This document shows positions 10,880-64,000 of a DNA stretch of 64,000 bases, piece by piece. The translations under genes were made by a program, and so were the position numbers. The notes under the pieces were generated by a model, which did no database searches, had not been told where the DNA came from, and saw only the letters and a program-made list of their open reading frames with translations. The stretch is from positions 9,071 to 73,070 of the IMG/VR virus record IMGVR_UViG_2840904412_000002, one strand, 5' to 3'. Source of the stretch: a virus (taxonomy: Duplodnaviria > Caudoviricetes). How positions within the stretch are numbered: the first letter of the stretch is position 1; the number at the start of each line of letters is the position of its first letter.

Positions 10880-11524
10880 ATGGAAATTAAATTGAATAAA
10901 GAAGAAAAGGGTTTGTTAGGTATTAAAACTAGAAATCATTTAGATAGTAGTAAACAACCTAAGAATGGTTGGAGAACAATTCCATTCAATGGATATTATG
11001 AGGCTCATCCTAGTGGGTTAATTAGAAATAAGTATAGTAAGAAACTTATTAAAGGTACTCAAACACGTAAATATAATAAGTTTACTAGCCAAGAGATTGT
11101 ATATCTATTAGTTCCTAAAAAAACAACTTATTCTAGAGCTAAAATTATTGCAAGTACCTTTCCAGAAAAGATTAGTCAGTCTAAAGGAGATTTAAGCAAT
11201 GGTTATGTTTGTTTTAAAGATGGGGATAGAACTAATTGTAATGTAAAAAACTTATTTATTGGTAAAGGGAAATTACGAAATGCTGTATATAAGGTAAATA
11301 ACTCCTTTATGACAAATAAGGACATTGTTAACTTCGTAAACAGTTTAACTAATGATAGTATTGGTAATAGTTTTAAACATATATTAGACAAAACTGAGTG
11401 TATTAGGGAAAGTAAAGACTATACTATTATTAAAAAAGGTAAAAGAATTAGTATTCTTAAGTCAGATAGCAGTTTATTTAGTTTTGTAGTAGAAAGAAAA
11501 CCAATTGAAAGAGGTAGAGTATAA
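10880..11524 (+). CDS. NUMOD4/HNH-like protein, probably degenerate
   Basis: WRTIPFNGYYEAHPSGLIRN and CFKDGDRTNCNVKNL (HNH His replaced). Confidence 0.55.
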   Translation: MEIKLNKEEKGLLGIKTRNHLDSSKQPKNGWRTIPFNGYYEAHPSGLIRNKYSKKLIKGTQTRKYNKFTSQEIVYLLVPKKTTYSRAKIIASTFPEKISQSKGDLSNGYVCFKDGDRTNCNVKNLFIGKGKLRNAVYKVNNSFMTNKDIVNFVNSLTNDSIGNSFKHILDKTECIRESKDYTIIKKGKRISILKSDSSLFSFVVERKPIERGRV

Positions 11525-11766
11525 TGGGAACTTTAATTTTAATTTTACAATGGATTGGTCTAATATTATTATTAGGAGTACTACAAATTTTTTCTATTAA
11601 GAGCGTGAATCGTATTGATGATATAAAATACTACTTATTATCTTGTTTTACATTCATTGTAATTTTCTTCCTAGTAGAAAGTATGGCAGGGTACACAGAA
11701 TATTTAATGTTTGTTATTTTATTTATCATTCTTATTAATACAATCCAAAGTAAGAAAGTAAAGTAA
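11524..11766 (+). CDS. membrane protein
   Basis: three hydrophobic segments. Confidence 0.6.
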   Translation: MGTLILILQWIGLILLLGVLQIFSIKSVNRIDDIKYYLLSCFTFIVIFFLVESMAGYTEYLMFVILFIILINTIQSKKVK

Positions 11767-11871
11767 GGATAGGTAAATGTAAAAAAGGTAAATAAAAAAA
11801 ACTTAGACTTAGGTACTTATATTAACCTAAGTCTTTTGTATAATTAAAGTATAGATAAGGAGGAATTAATT

Positions 11872-12300
11872 ATGTATGAACAAATCATTAATAAGTGGTT
11901 TAGGTTACTAGTTGATGGTATTCATAGATATGATGATACAATCCGTATTGAAGATATTTATAAGTTAGTAGAGGATATGGATTCTATGGATATAGTTAAT
12001 GCTTACTACATGAAAGGCAATACAGAGTATTGGGTAGCAGATTGGGCAGATAGTAAGAGTGAAACTAGCATTGAAAATATCTTAAAAAATAGAGGACTAG
12101 AGTATTCTTTTAAATCAGAACCAGAGTATAATGCTTACTTAGTTACCTTAAATAAAAACATAGTTAGAATAAAGGAATACTATGATATAATTATTTTAGA
12201 AATTCTAAAGGATAATAACATAGTAGAAACGATTACTATGAATGATTATAATAGAGTTTCTTTATACTTAGATACATTAATAAAGGAAAAGAAGAAGTAG
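11872..12300 (+). CDS. hypothetical early protein (resembles 19723 and 20047 ORFs)
   Basis: RBS AAGGAGG; 142 aa. Confidence 0.6.
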   Translation: MYEQIINKWFRLLVDGIHRYDDTIRIEDIYKLVEDMDSMDIVNAYYMKGNTEYWVADWADSKSETSIENILKNRGLEYSFKSEPEYNAYLVTLNKNIVRIKEYYDIIILEILKDNNIVETITMNDYNRVSLYLDTLIKEKKK

Positions 12301-12944
12301 AAAGATAGCTATAAGAATAGAATTTAGAACTATTGTAAAGAAAGTAATTAGAAATAAATAAGTGAATACATAGAGGTATAAGAGGGAGTAGAGAAGAAGT
12401 AAATATAGATACCTTATAAGCAATGTAAATAACTATACAATAGGTAATAGGTAATGTAATAGACAATAAGAACTATTAGGTAATATAAATAAGAAACAAA
12501 GAGAACTAATAGTAAATAACGTAAATAAGTATACAGTAGACAGTAACAATAAATAAGAAATAAGTAACAGTAAATAACAATGCAATAGACAAAGAAACGG
12601 ATAATATAAACCCCAGAACTTTTTCGTCCCTCTGCCTCGTCCTACTTAATGTAGTATCCGGTAATATTATATTTGAAATATAGATATTTATTATATTTTA
12701 ACTACTATATAATGATTACTATTCTAGACTTAATATATAGTAATATACTAGTTATCTACCTTAATGTATTAGTTATTTATACTAATCGGGTACTATCAAT
12801 GATTTACCCTACATTTATATAGTATTACTTATATATCTACTCTTATATGATTTCAGCTTCTTCAGTTTCAGTTCAATTTATTTACTCAAAGGTATTGCTA
12901 TTTAATGCTGTACATGTTATACTTTATATATACTAATAAAGGAA

Positions 12945-13319
12945 GTGGTAATTATGATTACAATTAAAGATATTATTGAGTTTGTTGAAGAGAACGGGGA
13001 GTATGAAAAATTGGAGTTCTTAACTGATATTTATAAGCATACTTATACCTATACTGTAGATAACTATACTGTTTATTATGTAACGATTGATAAGGTTTTT
13101 TCCTCTAACTTAGTCCTATATAAGAATGATGTAATGGTAAATAACTCCTATATCCATAGCAGAGCTTTCTGTGCTGACGTTGAGTTAGATAAGCTACTTA
13201 ATAAGTCTAATAGTGTACTTGAGGTTATTGACTACTATTATAATAAGCGTATGAAAGAAGTTTCTAAAGAGAATGAGAAGAAGCGGTTTTTAAATAAATT
13301 CATGAGTAGAGATAATTAA
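12945..13319 (+). CDS. hypothetical protein (paralog of 13338-13676)
   Basis: shared ITIKDIIEFVEENG...EVIDYY...KFM pattern. Confidence 0.6.
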   Translation: MVIMITIKDIIEFVEENGEYEKLEFLTDIYKHTYTYTVDNYTVYYVTIDKVFSSNLVLYKNDVMVNNSYIHSRAFCADVELDKLLNKSNSVLEVIDYYYNKRMKEVSKENEKKRFLNKFMSRDN

Positions 13320-13337
13320 TAAGGAGGATAATAAGTT

Positions 13338-13676
13338 ATGGTTAGTATTAGAGCTGTTATAAACTACATTGTAGCAAATGGAGTAGAAAGAGTTGAAGAA
13401 TCTAAGGTATCTCATATACTAGACTTGGGTAATGGTTATAGTATCGAATACATTATTCCCATTAGAATGGTCTATCATGAGGGTATTACTATACGTAAAA
13501 GAGGCTTTATTCAAGAGTTTAAAGGGGATGCTATTGATTATTTAAATGCTCAATTGAAGAAAGAAAATAACATTTACGAAGTCATTGACTTTTATGAGTC
13601 AGAGTCTATTAGAAAGGAATTTAATAGACAGTTAGAATTAGAGGAAGTAGAAAAATTTATGGGTAGACGAGAATAA
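13338..13676 (+). CDS. hypothetical protein (paralog of 12945-13319)
   Basis: VSIRAVINYIVANG...EVIDFY...KFM. Confidence 0.6.
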   Translation: MVSIRAVINYIVANGVERVEESKVSHILDLGNGYSIEYIIPIRMVYHEGITIRKRGFIQEFKGDAIDYLNAQLKKENNIYEVIDFYESESIRKEFNRQLELEEVEKFMGRRE

Positions 13677-13832: not shown

Positions 13833-14057
13833 ATGAATTATAAAGAAGTATTAGAGGTTATTAAAAATAATAAACCATGTAAGGTTAGATTTACTGGTAG
13901 TACTTTGTTCCTTGCTAATAAGGAATTTAATGTAGATACTGATAAAGGTATATTACAGATTGGTGTATCTAGTATTAATACAGACGACTATATTAAATTA
14001 CAGCGGTATTGTTTAGAAAGAGATGAGTATACCGTAGAAGGTGCTATTTTATTTTAA
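13833..14057 (+). CDS. hypothetical protein
   Basis: RBS AAGGAGG. Confidence 0.6.
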   Translation: MNYKEVLEVIKNNKPCKVRFTGSTLFLANKEFNVDTDKGILQIGVSSINTDDYIKLQRYCLERDEYTVEGAILF

Positions 14058-14069
14058 GGAGGTATATGT

Positions 14070-14270
14070 ATGGATTATAGAGATTTTATTACTGATTGTA
14101 TTAGTGGTGGTTATAGTGTGTATATTAAAGTTACTGATAATAGAGTTCATGTTATTTCAGAAATGGAATCAGTATCCTATCCAAAGAAAGAAATTAATTT
14201 ATATAACTTAAAATCTTACGTTTATTATATGAGTAACTTTGGAAGTCCTATTACAATGGAGGGATTATAA
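14070..14270 (+). CDS. hypothetical protein
   Basis: RBS AAGGAGG. Confidence 0.6.
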   Translation: MDYRDFITDCISGGYSVYIKVTDNRVHVISEMESVSYPKKEINLYNLKSYVYYMSNFGSPITMEGL

Positions 14271-14656
14271 TGAATAGGGTTAAACTATTAAAATTAATAG
14301 AGAATATGGCAGATATAAATAATATTGAAATTACAAGTGTAAACTTTTATCCAGAAGCACTAGATATTAACAATAAAGCTAAGATTTGTATGGGTAGTAA
14401 TTATGTAGTTCATAAAGTAAATGAGGGCGGTGGTAAAAGATGCTTTACTGTAGGTGAGATGTTAGATGAAGTTTTAGAGTTACTTAAACCTTCTTTTAGC
14501 AAGGGTGATTATATCACTAAAGGGGCACAATCCGGATTACTTATTAAGATAGGAGTAGATTCTTACAATATTCTAAATGATGACAATGAAACTATCTATT
14601 ATTATCCCATCTCGTTAAAAGAGTTAGAATATATGGGATGGAGAAAGAGGGATTAG
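14270..14656 (+). CDS. hypothetical protein
   Basis: TAATG coupling. Confidence 0.6.
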   Translation: MNRVKLLKLIENMADINNIEITSVNFYPEALDINNKAKICMGSNYVVHKVNEGGGKRCFTVGEMLDEVLELLKPSFSKGDYITKGAQSGLLIKIGVDSYNILNDDNETIYYYPISLKELEYMGWRKRD

Positions 14657-14658
14657 CT

Positions 14659-14973
14659 ATGATAAGTTCAAGTCATGCTAAGTACCTATCAGAGATGTAT
14701 AAAAATAGTGTACATCATGAAACTATAGATAGTATTGTAGAAGATGTATTAGATAATATTAATGATGGTATTATTGAAGAAGCTATGAGAGGGAATACAA
14801 GTTATCAATATGTTCTTAGGGATTTAAGAGTAGATAATGAAGTAGAAGATAGAGTTATAGAAGAACTTACTATCTCAGGGTATAGTGTAAACTATGTTAG
14901 TAATAGCACAGAGTATCCTTTTATATCCATAGATAATTTAGCAGGACTAGATTACTTAGAGATTAAATGGTAA
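14659..14973 (+). CDS. hypothetical acidic protein
   Basis: start after RBS GAGGG. Confidence 0.55.
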   Translation: MISSSHAKYLSEMYKNSVHHETIDSIVEDVLDNINDGIIEEAMRGNTSYQYVLRDLRVDNEVEDRVIEELTISGYSVNYVSNSTEYPFISIDNLAGLDYLEIKW

Positions 14974-36766: not shown

Positions 36767-36838
36767 TGGACTCTGTAGGATTCGAACCTACACTCCAACG
36801 CTTATGAGGCGTTTGCTTTACCATTAAGCTAAGAGTCC
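36767..36838 (-). tRNA. tRNA-Met(CAT) (Ile2 not excluded)
   Basis: GGACTCT acceptor stem, D-loop, AACGC-CTCATAA-GCGTT anticodon arm, GGTTCGAATCC T-arm. Confidence 0.92.
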
Positions 36839-38320: not shown

Positions 38321-38470
38321 TTCATACCGTCCTCTCAAAATAAGTTACTTTATTTTACCATATATAATAAATAATGTCAAATAAAAAATGAGGAGCTACA
38401 AGAGCCCCTCACCAAAGGAAAGATTATGATGTTATGGAATGTATCTAGTTGATACATTTATAATATAACA

Positions 38471-38992
38471 TTAATCTAATCCGGTAGAACCGAAGCCTCC
38501 ACGGTCACTGTGATTTTCAAATTTATCTACTACTACTGGTTCGGGATACACTACGGGAGCAATTACTAATTGAGCAATCTTTTTACCTTTTTCAATTTTT
38601 TGCTTAGTGCTTCCGATATTATCTACCATAACTTTAATTTCTGAATTATATCCGAAATCTACAGTTCCAAACTGAACTCGTAAGTCTGTCTTTGCTGTAA
38701 TACCTGACTTAGGTCGTACTTGAGCTTCATAACCTATAGGTAAATTAATTGCAATACCTGTAGGAACTAATGCTCTACTACCTTCAAAGACACATGTTTG
38801 TGTGGTGTTATTGTCTTTTTTCTTACATAAAGCTCTACCAATACGTTGTAATACTTGTCTTAGAGATTTTCTACAAGGATTTAATTCAATATCCTCTACT
38901 GCATATAGGTCTAACCCGCTATCATAAATGTTAGCACGTACTGGTATTTTTGCATCATTATGTAACAATTTAATTTCTAATTTTTCCATCAT
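38471..38992 (-). CDS. dut: trimeric dUTPase with a ~30-aa insertion
   Basis: DSGLDL, VPTGIA, QVRPKSG, GTVDFGY, IAQLVI, RGGFGSTG. Confidence 0.9.
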   Translation of the reverse strand: MMEKLEIKLLHNDAKIPVRANIYDSGLDLYAVEDIELNPCRKSLRQVLQRIGRALCKKKDNNTTQTCVFEGSRALVPTGIAINLPIGYEAQVRPKSGITAKTDLRVQFGTVDFGYNSEIKVMVDNIGSTKQKIEKGKKIAQLVIAPVVYPEPVVVDKFENHSDRGGFGSTGLD

Positions 38993-39357
38993 AAGTCTCC
39001 TTAAGTAAAGTCTTTAATGTCATAATCAACTAGTACTACATCTTCAAAATAGTCGGAGTGCAATACTAAAGAGTTTTCTAATTTGTCTCTAATCTCTTGT
39101 GTTTCATCTCCATTTTCTAAGTTTACTCTTACTTTTGCTTTAATTGTGACAATGTAAGTCTCTTCCATTATTTAATTATTCCTTTCAATAAATAATATCT
39201 CTCTAGTATCTCCTTATATAGTTTAAGCATATCATTATCTAAATTTTTATCTTCTAAATATATAATAAGTTTTTCCACTTCATCTTCACTTAGTACGACT
39301 ACCTTTTCCATAACACCCCTCCTTACTTAGTTATCATAACATAAAAAAAGAACGCTG

Positions 39358-39609
39358 TCAAGCGTCCTCTTCATGTACTTCATATATAGTTTTTTTAATT
39401 ATACTTATAGGTTTATACCCCTTATATACTAATGATAGTACACGTTTACTATTCCTAAAGTTAATAGTATTTGGGAACGATAAAGCAGATGTCACATCAG
39501 AAGTATAATCCATAGGATTTCCTAAATAGTCTGTTGCTTTAATATACATACTTCCATCTTTAAATACTATAACTTTTTCGTTTTCTACTTCTGTTCTTTT
39601 AATAATCAT
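39358..39609 (-). CDS. hypothetical protein
   Basis: 83 aa. Confidence 0.5.
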   Translation of the reverse strand: MIIKRTEVENEKVIVFKDGSMYIKATDYLGNPMDYTSDVTSALSFPNTINFRNSKRVLSLVYKGYKPISIIKKTIYEVHEEDA

Positions 39610-39617
39610 AAAATCAC

Positions 39618-39935
39618 CTAATAACCTACTATTAGTTTACTGCCTACTGTTAGATTAATTTCTTTATTTAATTCTTCTATTTCTTTAACAGTAGTATTAT
39701 AGTCCTTTGCAATAGCTTTTAAGGTGTCCCCATGTTCAACTATATGTACAATAGGGTACCTATAAATAAGACAGTAGTCAATGCTAGTTAATGATACTGA
39801 TTTAATATTGTTAAGTTCTTGAAGTCTATCAATACATACACCATATTTCTTACTTAAAGTCCATAATGTTTCCCCTGGCTTTACTTTGTGATAAAATTTA
39901 TTATCAACTCTTTTTAAATCCTTTATTAAATCCAT
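39618..39935 (-). CDS. tandem LysM-domain protein
   Basis: HKVKPGETLWTLSKKYG and HIVEHGDTLKAIAKDYN. Confidence 0.85.
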   Translation of the reverse strand: MDLIKDLKRVDNKFYHKVKPGETLWTLSKKYGVCIDRLQELNNIKSVSLTSIDYCLIYRYPIVHIVEHGDTLKAIAKDYNTTVKEIEELNKEINLTVGSKLIVGY

Positions 39936-40521
39936 TACTACGACTCCTTTTTTCGTAAAAGTCGGCTTGGAAGTAACAAATTAGTATTAATAACATATTA
40001 ACCAGTTCAGTAATAACAATATGTGGTGTCGTATTAGTTAATACCATACTAACCGATAGTAAACCAATGGCAAACCCTATAATAAGATATAACCATTTGT
40101 TAGTTCCATCAGACTGTTTAGTTTTATAGAACTGTATAATCTGGCTTATGTAAGCTAGTATAATAGATAGTGTTGCTACTGTTTGTGTTAATTCTACATA
40201 GGTACCAAAAATATATAGAAATAAAGAAAAGATAATTAAAAATAAAAATATAAACCAATCTTTCTTTCTATACACTACTACAAGTAAACAAACAAGTCCT
40301 AAAAATAAGTTAACACCTACAGAAATAATTTGGAATAATGTTGATTCTGTATGTAGTAAGTTATAAAAACTAATACCTACGGTGGTTATAATAAGGTACC
40401 AAAACCACCTAGATACACCATTAATATTACCATCTTTTACTAGAGACTTTAAGCCAGGAATATACCCAATCGTAATTAATATAGCATACATGGAACTTAA
40501 AATTAAAGGTAAATTACTCAT
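39904..40521 (-). CDS. PQ-loop/SemiSWEET-like membrane transporter
   Basis: multi-TM; GYIPGL and AYISQIIQFYKTKQSDG repeats. Confidence 0.65.
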   Translation of the reverse strand: MSNLPLILSSMYAILITIGYIPGLKSLVKDGNINGVSRWFWYLIITTVGISFYNLLHTESTLFQIISVGVNLFLGLVCLLVVVYRKKDWFIFLFLIIFSLFLYIFGTYVELTQTVATLSIILAYISQIIQFYKTKQSDGTNKWLYLIIGFAIGLLSVSMVLTNTTPHIVITELVNMLLILICYFQADFYEKRSRSNGFNKGFKKS

Positions 40522-46565: not shown

Positions 46566-47664
46566 TTATTTCCATCTAACTCTACCCCAATATTTTTCTT
46601 TAACGATACGCTCTTTTTTATCTGTAATTTTACAGATAGCCATATAGAAGTATCCTGCACTAGGGTTAGTAGGGTATTTTAGCTTAATCCACCAATAGCC
46701 ATCTTTCTTAGTGACGCTATAAAATGGTACCCACTGATTAGCATAAATCCAAGAACCACTTTCTACTACTTTACCATCTAAGCCTGGTGAGCGTCTAACT
46801 TTAATAGTCCTATCTGCAGTAAAAGTGCCTCCCATATTCCAAGTAATTTTTGGTTTTGGTTTTTCTGCTTTGAAGTTTGGTCTAATAAAAATCATATTAG
46901 GGTCATAAGGATGTACTCGAATAGTAGCGGGTTCCCAACCTTTACCACCTTGGGCATTACCATATGTCCATCCCCCACCTAACCAATTGTTTTCAATCAC
47001 AACAATTTGGTTAAGGGTAGCACTTAACACCCATGCTACATGACCATGCCCATTACCATAAGCTCCTGGAAATAATACCATATCTCCACCTTTAGCTAAG
47101 AAGCTAGGTGTGTTTTTATATATTTTTGCTTTATCCTTAAGTAAACTAGCGTTATCACTAGCAATATTTTTTGCACTTGCTCCTTGTAAAGAGTATCCAG
47201 GGAATAATTTATTAAAACCATAGTTTGCTAAATCATAACATTGCATTATGTTGCGTTATTGCCTTTCCATTAGAATATTTCTACTCTAATTTGTATAACA
47301 TAACTCTTACACTTTCATGTAAAGTTCAGACTATATCTTTACTCGATTATTTAAAAGTCAAGCACTCACCACTGTCTATCAATTGATAGCACTTAGTCGT
47401 TGAACCTTTCTCTACTGTTACCATAGAGACTTGGATGCGGATTTCCCAATCTTTATCTTTTTTACTATACCAAACACATTACTGTCTGCCCCTAACTATG
47501 TCACCATGCTAGGTTAGTAGATAAAGCTCTGAGGGGGTTCCCGTCAATTCAATGAGTTAGGATACCATTTATTAATATCCGTACCAACCATCGTAATCAA
47601 TATATTTCCCTGCGGTACCTCTTAAAAAGGAGACAAATTGACTTCGTGTCATCTTTGCTAACAT
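46566..47664 (-). CDS. CHAP + SH3b endolysin, join(47575..47664, 46566..47243), 255 aa
   Basis: exon 1 MLAKMTRSQF...DYDGWYGY joins QCYDLAN; GHVAWV catalytic His; SH3b C-terminus. Confidence 0.88.
47244..47574 (-). mobile_element. group I intron (ORF-less, 331 nt) in CHAP lysin
   Basis: P1 GGAUAU/GUAUCC with U.G pair; AAUUGACGGGAA, AAUCCGCA, UCAACGACUA, GAUAUAGUCU cores; terminal G; splicing restores the frame. Confidence 0.9.
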
Positions 47665-54232: not shown

Positions 54233-57200
54233 TTGGATGGTAAAGAGTTATTAAAGATTACTCAAGAAACATTTCAAACGGAACAAGTAACAAAAGAGCA
54301 GGTTGACCATATTTTAAATATGCTTAACCCTAGTACTTATATGCTTAAGTATCATACGCTAAGGGGGCATCCTATAACGTTTAGTATTCCAAATAGGGAT
54401 AGAAGTAGGGCACAAGCGCATAGACCTTGGCAAGTCCGTAAACTACATATGCGGACTATAAACCTTTTCTAAACTTGGAAACTCCTAACGTAAAGACGAG
54501 GACAATCAAGTGCTAAATTCAGTTTAATACTGATAAACGCCTAACGACTAAATTTACTGGTAAGCAATTAAATGGAATTGTGTAGAACAGTATAAGAGGG
54601 AAACCGTAACGAAAAGGGCTTTTACACCAAGAAGTAAAAGTATGAGATAGTCTAGTCCCCTAATAAATATCGGGAAACCGAGGGTAAAAAACGATAGTAA
54701 ATGATACCCACCCTAACAAAGCAGTAATTAAATCGAGACAATTAGGGCTATCGGAGATGTCAGTAATGGAGATGGTACATTTTGCGGATTTACATAGCTA
54801 TGCCTCTGTAAAGTGTATGTACACATTTCATACCCAAGACCAAGTTAAGAAATTTGTACAATCAAGGTTAAATCCAGTATTACAAAAACCTTATTTTAAC
54901 TCTATTGTAGATTGGGAACAAGATTCACAAGGCTTTAAAAAACTAAGAAATTCTAGTATGTTCTTTAGAACTAGCAGTAAGCCAGGGGCTTTAGAAGGTG
55001 TTGACGTAGATTTTTTAGTTTTTGATGAATACGAACGTGTGCCTAAATTATCAGAATCTTCTGGGTTGGAAGCCATGTCTAGTTCTCCTTTTAAAGTAGT
55101 TCGTAGATTCTCCACACCATCAGCACCAGGAATAGGAATACACAGATTATACCAACAATCTGACCAATGGTATTATGCACATGTTTGTCAGCATTGTGGT
55201 CATGAAAATGAAATGAAGTATGCAGATTATGACCCTGATAATTTAGATAAGAGTGGGAATTTGTTATGCGTAAATCCTGATGGTATAGACGAGATGGCAA
55301 AAACAGTACAAGATGGTACGTATCAATATGTGTGTCAAAAATGTGGGAAACCACTGGATAGATGGTATAATGGAGTTTGGAGATGCCATTTTCCAAATAG
55401 AACAAAGAATAATGCAGGTATAAGAGGGTACTATATTAGTCAGATGAATGCGGTAGATACATGCCCTTTAATGTAGAAATACATTAATAGCATCCCTTTA
55501 ATTCATGGGACATCTCTCATTTGAGACAATCATGAGCCAAGCCTATATTAATAGGAAGGTGCAACGACTATTATGTAGTTCCAAGTGGAACGAAACGGGG
55601 GAGACCTAAGTCTCATATGATATGGTTATGATATAGTCTGAGCTTTGTAGGTGACTACAAGAAGGATAGGAGTAACGAACCTATTCGTAACATAATGGTG
55701 GATTTCAGCTGACCAACTTGTTGAGAAGGAGTTAAATACTGAGTCTAAACAAGCATTTTATAACTACGTATTGGGTTAGTGGCATAGCCCCTTTACACAG
55801 TAATGTGTATCGAAGAACTCTGTTAAACGGGGAAACCCCTAACGTAAAGACGAGGGCAATCCCGTGCTAAGTGTTGACTTTATATAAAATACATGTTATA
55901 ATGTACTTGTAAGGTTAACTAAATGCCTAACGACTAAATTTCTAGGTAACTTACAAAAGGGTGTAAGTGAGAACTAGATAAGAAAACTAATACTTTGAAA
56001 AATTTTAATAAAAATAATAAAGATAGGGGGGTAATTATTTATGAGGAAACCTATAAGTACTAAGGAATTTGAAAATATTTTAAAAGAAACAGAAAAAGGA
56101 CAGTATACTTTACTAGGTGAAGTTGTCAATGCCAAAACTAAAGTTGATGTTAGACATGAGAAGTGCGGTACTGTATATAAAGTAAGTCCTTCTTCCTACA
56201 AAGGGGGTAGCAGATGTCCTATATGTGCAAGAAAAGAAAGAGTAAATACACGTAAAGGTGGAAGAAGAAAAACACATGAGGACTTCATAAAAGAGGTTTA
56301 CAATCTTGTTGGAGAAGAATACACAGTTAACAGTAAGTATGAAAAATGGAATACTAAAATATCATTTACACATAATAGTTGTGGGAATACTTTTTTAATG
56401 ATTCCTAATAGTTTTTTGAATGGTAGAGGTTGTCCTGAGTGTGGTAGAAAAAGAAGTAATTCTGTAAGAAACTCAAACAATAATATTTTTAAAGAAAAAC
56501 TAAGACTAAAATATGGCAATGAGTACACTCCTTTAGAGGACTATAAAAATAACTCAACAAATATATTAGTTAAGCATAATACTTGCGGTAACTCATGGAG
56601 AGTTAAACCTGCTAATCTACTATGGGGTTATGGATGCCCTAGATGTAAACAGTCCAAAGGAGAAAAGTTGGTAGAAGAGTATCTTTTAAGTAAGGGAATT
56701 AACTTTACGACCCAAAAGAAGTTTAAAGATTTAAAAGCAGTTAAAAATTTATCTTTTGACTTCTACCTACCAGAAGAAAATATTCTTATTGAGTATCAAG
56801 GAAAACAGCATTATCACCCAGTAGATATTTTCGGAGGAAGAGAGCAGTTTAAAAAGCAAGTGGAATATGATAATATGAAGAGAGAGTATACTAAGAATAA
56901 AGGATACCATTTAATAGAAATACCATATAAGTATACTACCATAGAAGGTATAGAAGAAATTTTAAACAAAGTATTAGTGTAAAGCAGAGAGCCCTTAACC
57001 TAAACTAAGGGTTATGATATAGTCTAAACCGTAAATAAATACTAGGAAACTAGCGGTAGTAATTGATGCCTTATGAAGATTTAAAAATGCGTGTATTACC
57101 AGAAGACGTGTTTGAAAACAAATCACAGATTGCTAAAGAACAATTATTTGATAGAGATAGATATAAGTATATATCATGTAGTGTTGACTGGGGTAATTTT

Positions 57201-57836
57201 CATTGGTGCTGTGTACATGGTATGACAGAAGATGGTCATGTAGACTTAATACGACTATTTAGTGTAAAGAAAAATAGCAGACCAGATTTAGTAGAGGCAG
57301 ACTTAGAAAGAATTATATTAGAGTTTTCTAAATATGACCCCGATATTATTATAGCTGATAATGGAGATTCAGGAAATAACGTTCTTAAATTAATCAATTT
57401 CTTTGGTAGGGAACGAGTATTTGGATGTACTTATAAATCTAGTCCACGCTCATCAGGACAACTATATGCACAATTTAATGAAAACACAAACACCGTAACC
57501 GTAGACAAATTAATGCATAATAAGAACTATATACAGGGACTAAAAACAGGTAGAATAAGTGTGTACCAAAAACAAGATGAAGAACTTAAAACATACTTAA
57601 AACATTGGCAAAATGTTTTAATCATGGATGAAGAAGATGAGAAAACAGGGGAAATGTACCAAGTAATTAAGCGTAAAGGAGACGACCATTACGCTCAGAG
57701 TGCAACGATAGGATATATTGGACTCAATCGTATTAAAGAATTACTTGAAACATCTAAAGGAACATCTTTTGACTCTACATTTGTTTCTACTGATTACAAC
57801 CAAGATTCAAACAATACATTCTATTTAAACGATTAG
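54233..57836 (+). CDS. terL: terminase large subunit, join(54233..54439, 54694..55454, 55698..55776, 57066..57836), 605 aa
   Basis: spliced product reads RPWQVR|IVNDTHPNKAVIKSRQLG, FLVFDEY, NAV|WISAD, VLG|MPYED, SVDWG, GDDHY. Confidence 0.92.
54440..54693 (+). mobile_element. group I intron 1 of terL (ORF-less, 254 nt)
   Basis: P1 GUCCGU/GCGGAC; CUAACGACUA and GAUAGUCU cores; ends AACG. Confidence 0.9.
55455..55697 (+). mobile_element. group I intron 2 of terL (ORF-less, 243 nt)
   Basis: AAUUCAUGGGA, AAUCAUGAG, GCAACGACUA, GAUAUAGUCU; ends CAUAAUG like the lysin intron. Confidence 0.85.
55777..57065 (+). mobile_element. group I intron 3 of terL carrying a homing endonuclease
   Basis: P1 GGGU/GCCC; CUAACGACUA before and GAUAUAGUCU after the ORF; internal promoter TTGACT(55874)-17-TATAAT. 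Confidence 0.9.
56041..56982 (+). CDS. intron-encoded homing endonuclease (three zinc-ribbon repeats + Vsr/EDxHD-like nuclease)
   Basis: H..CG...CP.C x3; SKGE...FDFYLP...IEYQGKQHY. Confidence 0.85.
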   Translation: MRKPISTKEFENILKETEKGQYTLLGEVVNAKTKVDVRHEKCGTVYKVSPSSYKGGSRCPICARKERVNTRKGGRRKTHEDFIKEVYNLVGEEYTVNSKYEKWNTKISFTHNSCGNTFLMIPNSFLNGRGCPECGRKRSNSVRNSNNNIFKEKLRLKYGNEYTPLEDYKNNSTNILVKHNTCGNSWRVKPANLLWGYGCPRCKQSKGEKLVEEYLLSKGINFTTQKKFKDLKAVKNLSFDFYLPEENILIEYQGKQHYHPVDIFGGREQFKKQVEYDNMKREYTKNKGYHLIEIPYKYTTIEGIEEILNKVLV

Positions 57837-57846
57837 GAATGATACA

Positions 57847-58644
57847 ATGTTACAAGATATTATAGATAATAAAGACACTGATATAAATATCGGTGTCTTA
57901 CACTTTTTAACAAATAGAACTTTTACATATGAAGAAGTAGCAAAGACTAATAATATATTAACTGAAAAGTATTATTATATTGTTAAGTCTTATGGATTTA
58001 ATGATTTTTATGATTTATTTCTATACGTAAACAATGAAGATAACTTTGTTTCTAAGGGGGGAGACAAGGATAAATCTAAGTTGAATAAAGTAAAGCGTAA
58101 GGTTATACGTAATGGTAAAGAAATAGAAATGACTATATACGAGGACCCAAATGCTGATAACCAACAACAAGATAAAAAACCCAAAGATAATGAACAACAA
58201 CCTAAAACAACATCAGCTATAGGCTCTAAATCTACAGGAACGGAAGAAGGACAAAAGGTTAATCCTAAAAGGATAGTAAATACAATCAGTAAGTTAGGTA
58301 GTAGAGCAGACCATATAGATACTTCTTTAGTAAATATCTCTAGGGAATTTACTTCTACAGATGGAGAGTTGATAGGTACTGCCTTTTTCGAGGAAACGAA
58401 AGATACTATTAAACTACATGGATATATAATAAAAGAAGGTGTTACTGGGGTAGGTATACGTTCTGTTATAGAGTTACTATTATTAGGAATAAAGAAAGAA
58501 AAAAATATAGAAGTATATGACATCCAATTACCAGAGGCTGTACAGTATTTAACTATGTTAGGACTTACTAAAAAGAATGATTCTTTTTATATGAATAAAA
58601 AAGATGTTATAGCTTTTATAGGGGACTTACATGAATTTCTTTAA
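57847..58644 (+). CDS. conserved putative virion protein
   Basis: KGG.KD.SKL.KVKR.V.RNGK motif; follows terL. Confidence 0.6.
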   Translation: MLQDIIDNKDTDINIGVLHFLTNRTFTYEEVAKTNNILTEKYYYIVKSYGFNDFYDLFLYVNNEDNFVSKGGDKDKSKLNKVKRKVIRNGKEIEMTIYEDPNADNQQQDKKPKDNEQQPKTTSAIGSKSTGTEEGQKVNPKRIVNTISKLGSRADHIDTSLVNISREFTSTDGELIGTAFFEETKDTIKLHGYIIKEGVTGVGIRSVIELLLLGIKKEKNIEVYDIQLPEAVQYLTMLGLTKKNDSFYMNKKDVIAFIGDLHEFL

Positions 58645-59266
58645 TATCTTGATTATATTTACAGTTTGTTATATACTATATGTAGTAACGCTAATACTAA
58701 TATATTACAAAAAAGAAATTAAATTTAAAAAACTTTTAATGAATTTAGAAAATTTAAAATATAATTTTTATATAGAAAAGGAAGATGTTGTAATGGAAAA
58801 TAAGTTAACGCTAGAGGAATCTATCACACCTTTAACAAAAAAAGAGAAAGAAGATGCTATTAAAGAGTTTAGTCGAATTTTATGTGAAATGACTAATAAG
58901 TTGTATTCTACATATAATGTATTAAGACAAGACCCAGTAGACGAAACACAAAAGTTAGATGGGCATTTAATGGTTTTTCAAAGCCGTTTAGGTGATTCTC
59001 TTACAGGAGATTTACATGATAAACTATTTAGATTAGCATTTGATAAACGTTTAAATATATTTGAGGTAAATAAACAGTACAGGAAAGATGTACAGGATAA
59101 TAAAGCTATTGCTCTAGGTAATGTTGTTGTTACAGATACAGCTATTAGTAATATTTTATCCAGTAATGAATTAGGGTTTAGTATTTCATTTATGCTAAAA
59201 GAAGATTGGGAAGAAAAAGAACGAATTCGAAAAGAAGAAGAAGAAAAGTTAAACAAAGAAAAGTAA
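58631..59266 (+). CDS. hypothetical protein (N-terminal TM; possible second start at 58793)
   Basis: 211 aa ORF with internal RBS AAAGGAAG. Confidence 0.55.
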   Translation: MNFFNILIIFTVCYILYVVTLILIYYKKEIKFKKLLMNLENLKYNFYIEKEDVVMENKLTLEESITPLTKKEKEDAIKEFSRILCEMTNKLYSTYNVLRQDPVDETQKLDGHLMVFQSRLGDSLTGDLHDKLFRLAFDKRLNIFEVNKQYRKDVQDNKAIALGNVVVTDTAISNILSSNELGFSISFMLKEDWEEKERIRKEEEEKLNKEK

Positions 59267-59302
59267 TGATGTTATGAGATACAGGGAAAGGGAATAAGTT
59301 TA

Positions 59303-60268
59303 ATGAATAAAAAGTTAGACGGTAAAGAAATAGCAACTGTAATTATCATAATATTAATAGGATTCTCTATATTATTTAATATTTTATTTTTATCTCAACT
59401 AGATAAAGAAAAAGAAGAGAAAGATAAATACAAAAGGTTAGTTAATATTTATCAGAAAGATAATAAGATAGATACTAAAGACAAAAAAGAATATGTTAAA
59501 AGGTTAAATGATGCAGAAGAGGAACTTGATAAAGTAAAGAAAGAAACTAATTATAAGGGATACAATGATAAGTCTGATAAAGGTAAAGCAGAGATAGATA
59601 AGGAACTTAGAGAGTCTATTTTTGGTAAACTTAGAGATGATGAAATAATTGTTAAAACTAAGATTGAATACACAGATAAGGTTAAATCACCTACTATAAA
59701 AATAGACAATGAGGGAATAGGAACAGTGTTACTTCCGATAGAGAATAAACCAGAGAATGATAATACTGAAGTAAAAGTAGTTGATTCTACTAACATACCA
59801 ACTGCTACACCTCCAGTAGTAAGTGCACCAGAGGTCAGTAATACACCAATACCCCAACAACCACCTAGTGTACCAGATAATAACGGTAATACAGTACCTA
59901 TTGCACCTAGTACACCTAATGCGCCTAGTGATGGTGGAAATTTAACACCAAATGTTCCAATTAATCCAACACCACCTGTTGAAGAACCTATAAAACCTAC
60001 AGAGCCAGACAGACCTATAGAACCGTCTAAACCAGAAGAACCAAGTGGTCCTGTTGAATCAGAGGAACCTAACAACCCTGATAATCCTGATGTTACTGAG
60101 GAACCACCTCAACCAGAAGAACCTAACAACCCTGATAATACCGATAATACTGATGCTACTGGAGAATCAAGTAATCCTAGTGAACCTAATATTATACCAT
60201 GGACACCACTAGAACCTCCTTTAAGTATGCCTTTAGTTCCTTTAGAACCTGCAACACCAATAACATAA
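59303..60268 (+). CDS. membrane-anchored Pro/Glu-rich protein
   Basis: N-terminal TM; EEPNNPDN repeats. Confidence 0.7.
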   Translation: MNKKLDGKEIATVIIIILIGFSILFNILFLSQLDKEKEEKDKYKRLVNIYQKDNKIDTKDKKEYVKRLNDAEEELDKVKKETNYKGYNDKSDKGKAEIDKELRESIFGKLRDDEIIVKTKIEYTDKVKSPTIKIDNEGIGTVLLPIENKPENDNTEVKVVDSTNIPTATPPVVSAPEVSNTPIPQQPPSVPDNNGNTVPIAPSTPNAPSDGGNLTPNVPINPTPPVEEPIKPTEPDRPIEPSKPEEPSGPVESEEPNNPDNPDVTEEPPQPEEPNNPDNTDNTDATGESSNPSEPNIIPWTPLEPPLSMPLVPLEPATPIT

Positions 60269-60356
60269 TTATTACTACAAAAGCATAGGTATTAAACCTA
60301 TGCTTTAATTATATTATATTAATAAGAGATGCTATTATAGAAAGGATATGTAACTA

Positions 60357-60710
60357 TTGAACTTTGATTTAAATATACTAACTTCTATTTTAGTTTTAAT
60401 TATAGGTACTTGTTTACTTACATTAGTAATAACAGAATGTTTAGGTTATACAAAAGAACTTAAATTGTTACATTATGCAATTTATGGTATAGTAATTATA
60501 GGAACTTATTTTTTAACAGAAATGTTTAAAAAAATATCTAGTATAATTAAAGAAGATGTTATTTTATCTGTTCAAAATACAGAAAAATATAACGGTTTTA
60601 ATGACCCAATATTTATATTCATTATTACAACGATTGGTGCTATTATTGGGCTAGGTATTTATTATACGCATAAATATATAAAAGAAACTAACTTAAATAA
60701 GAAACGGTGA
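60357..60710 (+). CDS. membrane protein
   Basis: three TM helices. Confidence 0.6.
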   Translation: MNFDLNILTSILVLIIGTCLLTLVITECLGYTKELKLLHYAIYGIVIIGTYFLTEMFKKISSIIKEDVILSVQNTEKYNGFNDPIFIFIITTIGAIIGLGIYYTHKYIKETNLNKKR

Positions 60711-60718
60711 TGTAGACT

Positions 60719-61099
60719 TTGACCTATGCTAAAGATAAAAAATGGGAAGATGCAAAGACTTTTATAAAACAACAGGGTATGAAAGATAATTGGATAGAAA
60801 TAGTAGATTATTATAGGCAAATAGGCGGTACGCACGTTGCTGTATTTATTGCTCTAGAAAAAGAAAAATATATGATACTAGAAGCAACTACTGATAATAG
60901 AGTAATATTAGTAGATAAAAATAATAATATTGTTTTAGAAGATTATAATGTGGTTATGGAATCTAAGAAGATGTTTTATTATATAGAACAACCCTTTAAG
61001 CACAAAATAGACTTAAATAGTTCTATAAGCAATATTACATATAATAACACAGATACATTAACAATGTACAACCATAAGGATGGTGACACGGTTGGCTGA
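60719..61099 (+). CDS. conserved hypothetical protein upstream of portal
   Basis: WIEIVDYYRQIGG. Confidence 0.6.
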   Translation: MTYAKDKKWEDAKTFIKQQGMKDNWIEIVDYYRQIGGTHVAVFIALEKEKYMILEATTDNRVILVDKNNNIVLEDYNVVMESKKMFYYIEQPFKHKIDLNSSISNITYNNTDTLTMYNHKDGDTVG

Positions 61100-62242
61100 T
61101 ATTTTTAAACGTCTAAGGTTAGGTAGAGATTATGAAGATATAATTGATACTGTACCTATAGATGAGGGATTACAGGCAAATATTAGAAATATAGAAGAAA
61201 AGAGCAAAGAACTTAATAAGTCATTATACGGTAATCAACAAGCATACGCAGAACCTTTTCTTGAAATGATGGATACAAACCCAGAGTTTAGAACAAAGAG
61301 AAGTTACATGAAAAATTCAGATAATTTACATGATGTTCTAAAACAGTTTGGTAACAATCCTATTTTAAATGCTATCATCTTAACAAGGTCAAATCAAGTA
61401 GCTATGTATTGTCAGCCCTCAAGATATAACGAAAGAGGGTTAGGCTTTGAAGTACGTATGCGTGACTTAGATGAAGAGCCTGGAAGAAAAGAAAAAGAAG
61501 AGATTAAACGTATAGAAAATTTTATACTAAATACAGGTAAAGATAAAGATGTGGATAGAGATTCTTTCCAATCTTTCTGTCGTAAGATTGTACGTGATAC
61601 TTATACATATGACCAAGTAAACTTTGAAAAGGTATTCAATAAGAAAAATGCTACAACAATGGATAAGTTTATTGCCGTAGACCCTAGCACTATTTTTTAT
61701 GCTACTGATAAAAATGGTAAGATAATTAAGGGTGGAAGGCGTTTTGTTCAGGTTATAAATAAAAAGGTTGTAGCTAGTTTTACTTCTAGGGAAATGGCTA
61801 TGGGTATCCGTAACCCAAGAACAGAATTATCTAGTAGTGGTTATGGGTTGTCCGAAGTAGAAATTGCTATGAAACAATTTATTGCCTATAATAATACGGA
61901 AACATTTAATGATAGATTCTTTTCACATGGCGGAACAACACGAGGTATACTTCAGATTAAATCAGAACAACAGCAATCTCAACGTGCATTAGAGAATTTT
62001 AAAAGAGAATGGAAGTCTAGTTTTTCTGGTATAAACGGAAGCTGGCAAGTACCTGTGGTCATGGCTGATGATATTAAATTTGTTAATATGACACCAACCG
62101 CAAATGATATGCAGTTTGAAAAGTGGTTAACCTATTTAATAAACATTATTTCAGCATTATATGGTATTGACCCCGCAGAGATTGGTTTCCCTAATAGAGG
62201 AGGAGCAACAGGTGGAAAAGGGGGAAACACACTTAATGAGGT
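61092..62242 (+). CDS. portal protein, exon 1 (interrupted; remainder outside window)
   Basis: MADIFKRLRLG, YGLSEVEIA, FFSHGGTTRGIL, DMQFEKWL, YGIDPAEIGF; similarity ends at GNTLNE. Confidence 0.9.
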
Positions 62243-62260
62243 AACTAAACAGTTACAATA

Positions 62261-62290
62261 TAAATATAAATATAAATATAAATATAAATA
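62261..62290 (+). repeat. (TAAATA)x5 microsatellite in the intron P1 loop
   Basis: enclosed by AAACAGTT/AACTGTTT stem. Confidence 0.85.
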
Positions 62291-62723
62291 TATAAACTGT
62301 TTGCCTTGCTTATAGAGTAATCTGTAAGTACCGAGTGTTAAATGCTAAGAACTCCTAAAGACTCAATAACTGAAACAGAATCCTAAAGGATAAATGGAAA
62401 AGTTACGAAAGTAGAAAAAATATTGAGTATGGTATAAGGTTAAATCCTAAGTACTAATACAATGGATGTTTAGCAGGGAAAGTTCTAAGGGAATGCAATT
62501 CCTATGAAAGACCCTCAACGACTATTCCGTATAGGTGACGGAAGTAAAACCACAAGTGATTGGTGGAAGAAAAATACTCCTCCTTACTTAATAAGGATGA
62601 ACAAATAGTCTCCGCTCGTTCTGAAAGGAAGAGCTTGGAATTAACCAAGGACTTAGAAGTAGCGTTCTAAAGTTAAAGATTGTTAAAACTTATAAATATT
62701 TAAAATTTTATTCCAATTACCTG

Positions 62724-62752
62724 TTGACAATTACTCACCATTATGTTATCAT
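62724..62752 (+). promoter_or_regulatory. sigmaA promoter for tnpB inside the intron
   Basis: TTGACA-17-TGnTATCAT followed by RBS AAGGAGG. Confidence 0.75.
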
Positions 62753-62766
62753 AGATACATAAGGAG

Positions 62767-63990
62767 GTGAATATAATGTTAAAACAGGAAAAATATAAAC
62801 GTATAAATATAAGATTATTACCAACTAAAGAACAAGAAGTTAAAATGTGGAAGTCAGTAAATAATGTACGAAATGTAAAAAACATATTTATAGCTAGGTG
62901 TTATGAGATAGACAAAGATACTGAATTTTTTAGTGTAGACCCATTAAAGAAAGAGTTGACAAAATTATTAAAAGATAAAAAGTATATGTATCTTAAAGAG
63001 ACCTCAAGACAAACATTGAATTTTGCAATAAAAGATGTTGTAGACTCTTTCATTAATTACAGAAGAAAAAGCACTAAAAAACCAGTATTTAAAAAAAAGA
63101 CTACTGCCACTAAATCTTTTAAAGTTAGGAACGGTTCTAACTCATTTAGAAGGGTAGGTTTTACATTTTATTTAGAAAAAATTGGTAATATTAAATTTTC
63201 TAAAAAGTACTATTTAAAAAATAAATATATTTTTGATTATATGGAAAAAGATAGATATATACTTCCTACAGTAATCTATGATGGAAAATATTGGTTTATA
63301 TCTATAATGTATAGGAGTGACTTAATTAATTCTCAAAAACCAAGAGAATTAACCAATGAAACAATAGGTATAGACTTAGGTATTAAAACATTAGCTACTT
63401 GTTCAAATGGTAAATCTTATAAAAACATAAATAAATCTCAAAAAGTTAAAAAAATAGAGAAGAAATTAAAACGTAAACAAAGACAAGTAAGTCGTAAGTA
63501 CGAAATGAATAAACAGGATAAAAAGTTTATTAAAACTAATAATATCATTAAGTTAGAAAAAGAAATAAAACTCTTACACAGAAAACTTAAAAATATTAAG
63601 AATACTCATATTCATACTATGACTAAAGAGATAGTAGAACAATTGCCACAAGAAATCGTAATAGAAGATTTGAAAGTAAGTAACATGATGAAAAATAAAC
63701 ATTTATCTAAACACATAAGTAAGAGTAATTGGCATGAAATACGTAGACAATTATCTTATAAATGTGAAGATAGAGGAATATTACTTACAGTAGCAAATAC
63801 TTATTATCCAAGTTCTCAAACTTGTTCTTGTTGTGGTAATCGTTTAACTAAACAAGATAAACTATCTTTATCACAAAGAACATATAAATGTTCTTGCGGA
63901 AATAATCTCGATAGAGATTATAACGCTAGTCTTAACTTGAAAAACTATAGGTACTCCAAATGGTATCAAAATAATATAATTTCACAATAA
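62767..63990 (+). CDS. tnpB: TnpB RNA-guided endonuclease (IS200/IS605/IS607 superfamily)
   Basis: RLLPTKEQ N-terminus; RuvC GIDLG, IEDL, DRDYNA intact; PSSQTCSCCG..CSCG zinc finger. Confidence 0.92.
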   Translation: MNIMLKQEKYKRINIRLLPTKEQEVKMWKSVNNVRNVKNIFIARCYEIDKDTEFFSVDPLKKELTKLLKDKKYMYLKETSRQTLNFAIKDVVDSFINYRRKSTKKPVFKKKTTATKSFKVRNGSNSFRRVGFTFYLEKIGNIKFSKKYYLKNKYIFDYMEKDRYILPTVIYDGKYWFISIMYRSDLINSQKPRELTNETIGIDLGIKTLATCSNGKSYKNINKSQKVKKIEKKLKRKQRQVSRKYEMNKQDKKFIKTNNIIKLEKEIKLLHRKLKNIKNTHIHTMTKEIVEQLPQEIVIEDLKVSNMMKNKHLSKHISKSNWHEIRRQLSYKCEDRGILLTVANTYYPSSQTCSCCGNRLTKQDKLSLSQRTYKCSCGNNLDRDYNASLNLKNYRYSKWYQNNIISQ

Positions 63991-64000
63991 AGAAATATAT

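Follow-up and report, generated by a model that had tools for sequence, protein, structure and literature searches.

The stretch analysed here, referred to as the window, comprises 64,000 nt of a tailed-phage genome (positions 9071-73070 of contig G000:C1, an IMG/VR record of 73,070 nt) and stops where it does because the contig stops. Its end holds the first exon of a portal gene, interrupted by an element in which a group I ribozyme, one arm of an inverted repeat (IR), a predicted promoter and a tnpB gene follow one another. Judged from its sequence, this element belongs to the group B (IS607-family) IStrons as a non-autonomous member, measures about 1.9 kb and splits the portal gene of a Twort-like, virulent Staphylococcus phage from the Herelleviridae (Twortvirinae). 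A sequence-only reading had described an IStron-like element with an IS607-like protein. In that description, portal similarity stops at GNTLNE and is followed by a full group I core, P9 hairpins, a sigma-type promoter and a TnpB with a RuvC D-E-D triad and a zinc finger, with no transposase between ribozyme and tnpB. All of these features were recovered and located, as listed below in window coordinates; phage vB_SpsM-DH2 (DH2) is a close relative and G001 is a companion contig.

61080-62241, plus strand: portal exon 1, 387 codons plus 1 nt (Pfam Phage_portal, alignment with phage Twort)
62238-62241, plus strand: GAGG, the final four exon bases, at the 5' splice site and left transposon boundary; predicted target-adjacent motif (TAM) in an empty allele
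62241-62256, plus strand: P1 hairpin; exon G62241 (G-1) pairs with C62256 (intron C+15), UAACU with AGUUA; the first intron base is U
62259-62291, plus strand: (ATAAAT)n microsatellite linking P1 to P2, exceeding the DH2 tract by two units (12 nt)
62307-62674, plus strand: group I (IA2) ribozyme core (RF00028, covariation, alignable with the IStron of phage c-st)
62307-62330: P2
62333-62339 with 62573-62579: P3
62343-62514: P4-P6
62520-62524 with 62606-62610: P7
62525-62543: P7.1
62550-62566: P7.2
62581-62597: P8
62615-62633: P9
62634-62649: P9.1
62650-62674: P9.2
62682-62714, plus strand: 5' arm (33 nt) of an AU-rich IR, complementary to G001:C1:226-260
62724-62752, plus strand: predicted internal sigma-70-type promoter, TTGACA-17-TATCAT with TG extension, 11/12 matches
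62761-62767, plus strand: ribosome-binding site AAGGAGG, read from the sequence
62776-63990, plus strand: tnpB, 404 aa, an apparently intact IS607-type RNA-guided nuclease (Pfam, PHROG, PDB)
63884-64000, plus strand: 117-nt repeat inside tnpB, identical to G000:C1:1-117 and to the first 117 nt of G001

Portal gene and junctions

The open reading frame (ORF) at 61080-62315 matches Pfam Phage_portal (2.1e-17) at profile positions 48-244 of 321, and the C-terminal part of the portal protein is therefore missing from it. The portal protein of phage Twort, which is uninterrupted and 573 aa long, aligns to this ORF over its aa 1-384 with 97.7% identity, ending in ...GNTLNE. In the Twort annotation, the portal start is a TTG located 12 nt inside the start at 61080. 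The last portal-like bases upstream of the element are ...AATGAGG.

Comparison with Twort and DH2 places the two junctions at AATGA(GG)/TAACT and AACTTAC(GG)/CAGACC, where the GG in brackets is present on both sides of the element, which allows the cut to be placed at either G. If it is placed after GAGG, splicing gives the codon G/CA (Ala), the codon of Twort at this place being GCC, and exact removal of the element restores the portal reading frame. The 5' side of the element reads ...AATGAGG/UAACUAAACAGUUAC and thus presents an insertion motif ending in GG. The 3' side, which lies beyond the window, reads ...AACTTACGG/CAGACC both on G001 and in DH2 and has the CGG end. No target-site duplication is found at the element ends beyond the GG core. 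In DH2 as well as in the initial part of G001, ...ACTTACGG is immediately followed by the second portal exon, which corresponds to aa 384-570; the G001 copy is 95.8% identical to aa 384-570 of Twort.

Group I ribozyme

The ribozyme region extends over 62242-62674 within about 530 nt of non-coding sequence that begins at 62242. A search of 601 nt (62200-62800) with the Rfam group I model RF00028 gave a match at 62292-62633 that covers the whole model (1-253 of 253) with 34.5 bits and E = 4e-7. A search of 55000-64000 at E <= 1 returned no match; this is a false negative, as it also missed an intron of 83 bits at 55420-55661. Across 11 related loci (56 kb) searched at E <= 0.001, only one of nine IStron-type introns was listed, namely that of phage PT1-1 with 51.4 bits, and the introns of loci L031, L033, L034, L036, L008, L038 and L039 were not. 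Since RF00028 is a weak model for this intron subclass, covariation was used instead.

Ten introns were aligned: the window copy, the second and third copies of the same phage, the second copy of DH2, the portal intron of Romulus, the lysin intron of SAPYZU_15, the tail lysin intron of Alsa_4, the tail tube intron of PSU2, the PT1-1 intron and the c-st IStron. The RNAalifold consensus recovered P2, P3, P4-P6 with a P5 extension, P7.1, P7.2, P8, P9 and P9.2, and the invariant P7 pseudoknot was added manually before pairs were counted. With P7 included, 96.0% of 903 cells are paired and 56 of the 91 pairs are changed on both sides. No shuffled alignment out of 500 reached any of the five measures applied, and moving the pairing partners by one to three columns left 9-17 pairs changed on both sides. 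The ribozyme is real and under selection. Its IA2 label was taken from the helix pattern and the literature, with no classifier involved.

At the 5' splice site, only the last exon base takes part in P1 from the exon side. The GG/U(A/U)AC...GUUAC hairpin is present in seven of the ten intron copies inspected; three of the ten are without the GGT[AT]AC motif, and PT1-1 retains the GGTAAC start without the GTTAC arm. This P1 agrees with the published 5' splice site of group B IStrons, which is of an unusual type (PMC4227781, PMC13565253). The (ATAAAT)n tract in the P1-P2 linker is a length-variable spot within the ribozyme, and the mapping of read contigs passed over 62247-62300 as a repeat.

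Inverted repeat, internal promoter and tnpB

Behind P9.2, the 5' IR arm faces a 3' arm on G001 that ends five bases ahead of the 3' splice site. The two arms are reverse-complement blastn matches with 91-94% identity over 35 nt, and their duplex was computed with duplexfold at -32.2 kcal/mol. In all six full copies tested, which comprise those of this phage and DH2, two of LSA2311 and two of SAPYZU_15, the values lie between -31 and -35 kcal/mol; the sequence slice of the truncated copy held only part of an arm. Because the 5' and 3' arms pair, tnpB and the omegaRNA are looped out between them. The stem matches the one described for group B IStrons (PMC4227781).

The predicted promoter lies downstream of both the ribozyme and the 5' IR arm. 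Transcripts starting there can therefore contain the omegaRNA but no ribozyme and no IR helix. By the coordinates, all three can form in read-through transcripts. Promoter-like sites as a class are not enriched (8 found, 11.6 expected), and the Romulus record has a promoter annotated at the equivalent relative place. It has been reported that tnpA and tnpB are natively under one promoter inside the IStron (PMC13521648, NAR 2026). The two-transcript consequence of this promoter placement was not found spelled out in the portions of the literature available to us.

For tnpB, the ORF list gives a GTG start at 62767 (407 aa, the length stated by the sequence-only reading). The ATG at 62776, 8 nt past AAGGAGG, is the likelier start and yields 404 aa. 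The protein matches the Pfam families OrfB_IS605, Cas12f1-like_TNB and HTH_OrfB, as well as PHROG 506 'transposase' (2e-101). Its nearest solved structure is 8iaz_A (8.9e-58, residues 14-393), in which the GIDLG, IEDL and DR(D/A) motifs align; PDB 8IAZ is apparently named in the paper on the ISFba1 TnpB-reRNA system. In ATG numbering, the RuvC triad D200/E297/D379 and the zinc-finger residues Cys350/353/372/374 are present, and the protein is apparently an RNA-guided nuclease with intact active-site residues. On the plus strand, no ORF of at least 40 aa lies between the portal stub with its ribozyme and tnpB. There is no serine recombinase (TnpA_S) within the element, and the resolvase domain PF00239 is unmatched in both G000 and G001 at E <= 10.

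Companion contig and omegaRNA

The sequence-only reading had placed a TAM at the 5' junction, where the TAM-like GAGG indeed abuts, and had looked past position 64000 for an omegaRNA, a terminal G and exon 2 of the portal gene. All three are present on the companion contig G001 (66,586 nt; loci L022 and L023) and contiguous in DH2. The connection is made by the 117-nt repeat:

G001, L023 1-117 and L022 3173-3289: the same 117-nt repeat as at window 63884-64000

Both records, of 73,070 and 66,586 nt, are classed in IMG/VR as having direct terminal repeats, with CheckV completeness values of 50% and 47%. Taken together, the sequences indicate that G000 and G001 are false circles, each representing half of a single genome (about 139 kb in all) whose assembly crossed over at two IStron copies. 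In the resulting layout, portal exon 1, IStron 1 with a full tnpB and portal exon 2 follow one another at one site. At the other site, the order is the head of a gene here called geneX, IStron 2 with a truncated tnpB, and the tail of geneX. After the 117 nt, G001 continues with a match to the RAGATH-18 RNA family, ...AACTTACGG and portal exon 2. Its other end consists of the head of geneX, the second intron and a tnpB remnant (aa 313-404), followed by the 117 nt. After the overlap, the start of G000 holds the tnpB stop, RAGATH-18 at 150-228, ...AACTTACGG, the last 17 codons of geneX and an SSB-like gene.

The RAGATH-18 omegaRNA scaffold scores 70.3 bits both at G001:150-228 and in DH2 and 66.7 bits at G000:150-228, with a gathering score of 44.9. 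RAGATH-18 marks the guide RNAs of IS607-type TnpB proteins (PMC11061315). Between the end of the match and the CGG end lie 37 nt, and the first bases of the 3' IR arm fall within the match. The omegaRNA scaffold and the helix closing the intron loop thus share bases, which corresponds to the conflict of splicing with guide formation known from an earlier study (bioRxiv 2023.11.20.567912).

Phage DH2, a recorded isolate, is 97.5% identical over 99% of the query, and its portal element is contiguous, with 1,898 nt between ...AATGAGG and CAGACCC.... In Logan contigs of X1, the likely source run, the depth rises from 22.1 to 38.0-39.3 across the last approximately 170 nt of the window. In run X2, an independent DNA sample, one contig spans the junction of exon 1 and intron.

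A true circular genome of 73 kb, in which the 3' flank of the element would lie beside the SSB gene, was considered and rejected, because CheckV completeness is 50%, the 3' flank belongs to geneX, being its tail, and the matching head is found at the G001 end, behind the second intron, the synteny with DH2 and Twort is as expected for the two-site layout, and the repeat has double depth. Repeated IStron copies can thus lead assemblers to close false circles.

Class membership and known systems

The order of the element is GAGG, the P1-P9.2 IA2 ribozyme, the 5' IR arm, the promoter, tnpB, RAGATH-18, the 3' IR arm, UACGG and portal exon 2, and everything from RAGATH-18 onward is located past the end of the window, on G001, and is contiguous in DH2. 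This corresponds to the group B IStrons in several respects. An IA2 ribozyme with P7.1, P7.2 and P9.0-P9.2 occupies the 5' part of the element, the insertion sequence (IS) part stands behind P9.2 within an AU-rich IR stem, and an IS607-type TnpB is combined with a RAGATH-18 omegaRNA across the 3' boundary. The RuvC D-E-D triad and the CxxC...CxC zinc finger expected of an active TnpB are intact, and GAGG is, besides AGGG and TGGG, one of the described group B insertion motifs (PMC4227781). The GAAC/GAAU motif published for group B behind P9.2 has no exact form here, and ORF A (TnpA_S), carried by autonomous copies only, is absent. For the latter reason, the element is non-autonomous, like CbISt1, CbISt4 and CsISt1. 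Such TnpA-less group B IStrons were catalogued in 2014, together with phage copies in c-st and D-1873 (PMC4227781).

All other defining features are thus held in common with BcISt1 of Bacillus cereus, CbISt1-4 of Clostridium botulinum and its phages, CsISt1, CboIStron and the CseIStrons. The c-st IStron aligns with the window intron with 72% identity over 174 nt, and its RAGATH-18 match scores 61 bits. The anatomy is therefore that of a known class, and what is added is the IStron identity in virulent Staphylococcus phages, for which no description was found in the literature searched. Whereas group B IStrons reside on clostridial or Bacillus chromosomes, on a plasmid or in a pseudolysogenic phage, this one is located in a strictly virulent Staphylococcus myovirus. 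In addition, this phage differs from them in having no TnpA found genome-wide, four omegaRNA modules and one IStron with a truncated tnpB.

The closest annotated counterpart is a portal element of Silviavirus phages (Romulus, Remus, KSAP7/11, Stau2, LSA2311, SAPYZU_15, VL10), which is labelled 'IS605 OrfB transposase'. Its intron is about 75-76% identical and its TnpB 54%; like the element here, it sits in the portal gene, has a promoter ahead of tnpB and is said to be spliced. It differs in its site, which follows ...SHGG at about aa 280 compared with aa 387 here, and in its 3' end, CATGG. In the Romulus locus, RAGATH-18 was undetected at E <= 0.001. The split portal with a transposase has been remarked on (PMC7497331, PMC11035597) and is also noted in the annotation of the Romulus record. 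In the accessible parts of these sources, the element is neither named an IStron nor tied to omegaRNA or TnpB nuclease activity.

Another known system is that of phage group I introns with protein homing endonucleases, such as T4 td/I-TevI or the I-RoReV intron of Twort-like phages (PMC7497331). Common to both are a self-splicing intron in an essential phage gene and a nuclease gene in a peripheral loop, and both share the prediction that the intron-less allele is cut in mixed infection with co-conversion of the flanks. In contrast to td/I-TevI, the nuclease here would be RNA-guided, with its specificity residing in the flanking exon and not on the protein surface. Moreover, the guide RNA would overlap the 3' splice site, so that splicing and guide production would compete. 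ISFba1 (Cell Res 2024, PMC11061315) also has RAGATH-18 behind the gene without ORF overlap. It is a bacterial IS607 element that has no intron and uses the TAM AGGAG, whereas the TAM here is predicted from the junction as GAGG or NNGG.

Relatives and distribution

At the DNA level, the intron family was found in 155 phage records, including that of the published c-st IStron. The hosts are mostly Staphylococcus (125) and Enterococcus (15), with few Clostridium, Bacillus, Listeria and others, and the introns reside in portal, lysin, tail lysin, tail tube and other genes. A search of viral contigs for related loci gave eight loci, six of them with TnpBs of 44-46% identity. The D-E-D triad and the four cysteines are kept in all 13 full-length TnpBs from five phage genomes, which are 31-96% identical to the TnpB of the window. 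Among recorded isolates, DH2 carries the element at the same site and Silviavirus isolates carry a related one at a different portal site. If these isolates are viable, the portal must therefore be restored in them.

The phage of the window itself contains four RAGATH-18 modules above the gathering score, belonging to three IStrons and one intron-less IS607-like element. Its tnpB-like genes number five, including a truncated one, and RF00028 matches it at no fewer than eight places, in four cases above gathering:

G001:C1 about 65830-66586 joined to G000:C1:1-265 (L031, L005): IStron 2 in geneX
G001:C1, ribozyme about 11440-11870, TnpB 12001-13266, RAGATH-18 13318-13402: IStron 3
G001:C1 about 38400-40140 (L030), and Twort MT151386 about 124300-125700 (L007): intron-less IS607-like element

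IStron 2 interrupts geneX (PHROG 1069/2058, the gene upstream of the SSB-like gene); DH2 and Twort have this gene without interruption. Between IStron 2 and the portal copy, the ribozymes are 80% identical, and IStron 2 has lost the promoter and codons 1 to about 312 of its tnpB by deletion. The omegaRNA scaffold of IStron 2 is identical to that of the portal copy at 156 of 159 nt. The intron-less element consists of the left end ...AACAGG/TA, a short ORF, a TnpB of 369 aa (43-46% identical), RAGATH-18 and the end ...ACAACGG. The short ORF looks like an internally deleted IS607 tnpA remnant, named by eye from its peptide. As the flanks of this element differ between this phage and Twort, it has moved.

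Several further introns and elements were observed. Just past IStron 3, three tandem group I introns are located at G001:C1:13742-13993, 14044-14347 and 14395-14682 (L029 3243-4183), with 52.4, 54.9 and 60.7 bits. A TnpB of another type is encoded just outside the window at G000:C1:7515-8579 (L032) and in SAPYZU_15 at 12052-13101, where it lies directly ahead of geneX. This TnpB type is 31-33% identical, has 368 aa with an intact D-E-D triad and comes without a RAGATH-18 match; the 3' end of its element is apparently ...AGTAGCAGG. Within the window, two other group I introns above gathering were found by RF00028 at 55420-55661 (+, 83.4 bits) and 55767-55971 (+, 75.6 bits), besides a weaker match at 47306-47634 (-, 36.5 bits). 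A tRNA gene (RF00005, 75.7 bits) is located at window 36767-36838 (-).

Occupied and empty alleles

All five occupied sites end in GG (GAGG, GGGG, GCGG, TGGG, GGGG). Of 15 empty alleles surveyed, eight are without the terminal GG, and the remaining seven have it together with at least two mismatches to the resident guide in positions 1-12. In the empty geneX allele of DH2, the guide matches at 26 of 26 positions and the sole difference is the TAM, which reads GGTG in place of GGGG, a synonymous Gly change. At the portal site of Twort, GAGG is replaced by GAAG and guide position 2 is mismatched, and both changes are synonymous. This pattern fits an invasion that depends on GG. It does not separate TnpA-type integration from TnpB cleavage, nor resistance mutations from ascertainment.

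A possible trace of homing lies beside the portal junction. Compared with Twort, the 60 nt upstream of it (62182-62241) contain 12 differences, all synonymous, and the next 120 nt are 98-100% identical, with zero or one difference per 60 nt. Downstream of the junction, the first 120 nt are 92-93% identical, with about 97% further on. The tract is suggestive of co-conversion.

Proposed mechanism and alternative explanations

The explanation that probably accounts best for these observations is a group B IStron that divides splicing and omegaRNA production between two kinds of transcripts and spreads by TnpB homing without TnpA. Read-through transcripts from the portal promoter would contain the ribozyme and both IR arms. 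The IR helix of about 33 bp would loop out tnpB and bring the 3' splice site to the ribozyme core, and self-splicing would then yield the portal mRNA. Transcripts from the internal promoter, being without ribozyme and 5' IR arm, would supply TnpB and the omegaRNA, whose guide would be the first 16-20 nt or so of exon 2. In a mixed infection, the TnpB-omegaRNA complex would cut an IStron-less portal allele in which a GG-ending TAM stands beside a matching exon 2. Repair by recombination with the IStron-bearing genome would insert a copy of the element, which would amount to homing without TnpA. The phage's own allele would be spared because the target is preceded there by ACGG and not by GAGG. 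The portal TnpB probably also serves the near-identical omegaRNA of IStron 2, whose own tnpB is truncated. The sequence-only reading proposed that TnpB takes the place of a homing endonuclease, that competitors are excluded and that splicing and the making of omegaRNA occur at different times; these are plausible hypotheses.

Elements of this proposal have precedents. The homing of TnpA-less IStrons between co-infecting phages was proposed in a 2026 review (PMC13565253). For CboIStron, CboTnpB was reported to cut donor joints flanked by TGGG, and omegaRNA maturation and splicing were reported to be mutually exclusive (bioRxiv 2023.11.20.567912).

Several points weigh against this explanation. 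None of the 15 empty alleles presents a perfect predicted target, and therefore no susceptible recipient has been identified. TnpB homing cannot account for the arrival at new sites, and there is no serine recombinase in either half-genome. The TAMs of known IS607 TnpBs vary (TGGG in Cbo, AGGAG in ISFba1), and the one here is a prediction. The ratio of non-synonymous to synonymous changes per site (pN/pS) of tnpB compared with DH2 is 0.47, although its 31 changes (10 synonymous, 21 non-synonymous) are too few to decide. The portal gene has other dips of similar depth compared with Twort, so that the co-conversion tract is no more than suggestive. The RF00028 score of the ribozyme is below the gathering score of 50. 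For this phage, the join to exon 2 and the omegaRNA is based on the shared 117 nt, the exon logic and the synteny with DH2, with no spanning read. Finally, no RNA support for splicing, promoter or omegaRNA was found, and no RNA run contains the stretch. In the single run recorded as RNA (0.07 share of words), the contig stops at 62239 and leaves the intron uncovered. Its pieces are 90-92% like the window and may stem from an intron-less relative or from DNA, and they say nothing on splicing.

The foremost alternative is that TnpA_S is supplied in trans by a host IS607 element or by a co-infecting phage or prophage and moves the element, with TnpB being only 'restorative' by re-installing excised copies. 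Related elements occupy many sites (two portal sites, lysin, tail lysin, tail tube and geneX), and since the guide is fixed by the flank, such different insertion sites are unexplained by it. Likewise, the GG at every occupied site is the core dinucleotide of TnpA_S. In this phage and in Twort, IS607-type tnpA remnants, either an N-terminal HTH-like (helix-turn-helix-like) peptide or a C-terminal piece, named by eye, lie upstream of related tnpB genes with different flanks. Nevertheless, no resolvase domain is encoded in either half-genome even up to E 10, a source in trans is uncertain during lytic infection, and every one of the 13 copies retains the TnpB active site while TnpA is lost from all. 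As a replacement for TnpB homing, this route is considered rather doubtful, but the two are compatible with each other.

Less likely still is an immobile, vertically inherited intron whose TnpB is kept for tuning splicing via the omegaRNA or for cutting competitors without copying. It would accommodate the lack of a perfectly matching empty allele, the pN/pS value and the fact that one IStron of this phage has already lost most of its tnpB; moreover, TnpB has been reported to modulate splicing in CboIStron (bioRxiv 2023.11.20.567912). However, the nuclease residues are conserved without exception in the 13 copies and the omegaRNA scaffolds score above gathering. In addition, the occupancy of the portal and geneX sites differs among this phage, DH2 and Twort, and such differences among close relatives suggest recent gain or loss.

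That there is no functional intron at all, and the portal gene of a defective phage merely contains a plain IS insertion or a mis-assembly, is very improbable: the contig is a false circle and exon 2 lies outside the window, but the isolate DH2 also shows this insertion in contiguous form, a contig from an independent sample has the junction, the ribozyme helices covary and excision restores the frame exactly.

Significance

Up to now, work on IStrons with an active TnpB has concerned copies on clostridial chromosomes and plasmids, together with TnpA. Here, the same kind of element is located in essential genes of lytic phages that are easily grown, and no transposase accompanies it. If the element still spreads, RNA-guided homing or help in trans are the sole routes left to it. 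The proposal that OMEGA nucleases (from obligate mobile element-guided activity) act as homing endonucleases between co-infecting genomes thus becomes directly testable with DH2, Twort and this phage. Furthermore, such 'transposase' genes recur in Staphylococcus phages considered for therapy, where they are usually annotated without context.

In a more general form, which we put forward tentatively and at somewhat less than even chances, the TnpA-less IStrons of virulent Twort-like phages would be RNA-guided homing introns. One intact TnpB, expressed from the promoter past the ribozyme, would load several omegaRNAs, that of IStron 2 among them, and cut the empty essential-gene alleles of co-infecting relatives; this would copy the elements as well as exclude competitor markers, and synonymous TAM changes in empty alleles would confer resistance. 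If this is true, GAG-G to GAA-G in the Twort portal gene and GGG-G to GGT-G in the geneX alleles of DH2 and Twort would be resistance mutations in an arms race between phages.

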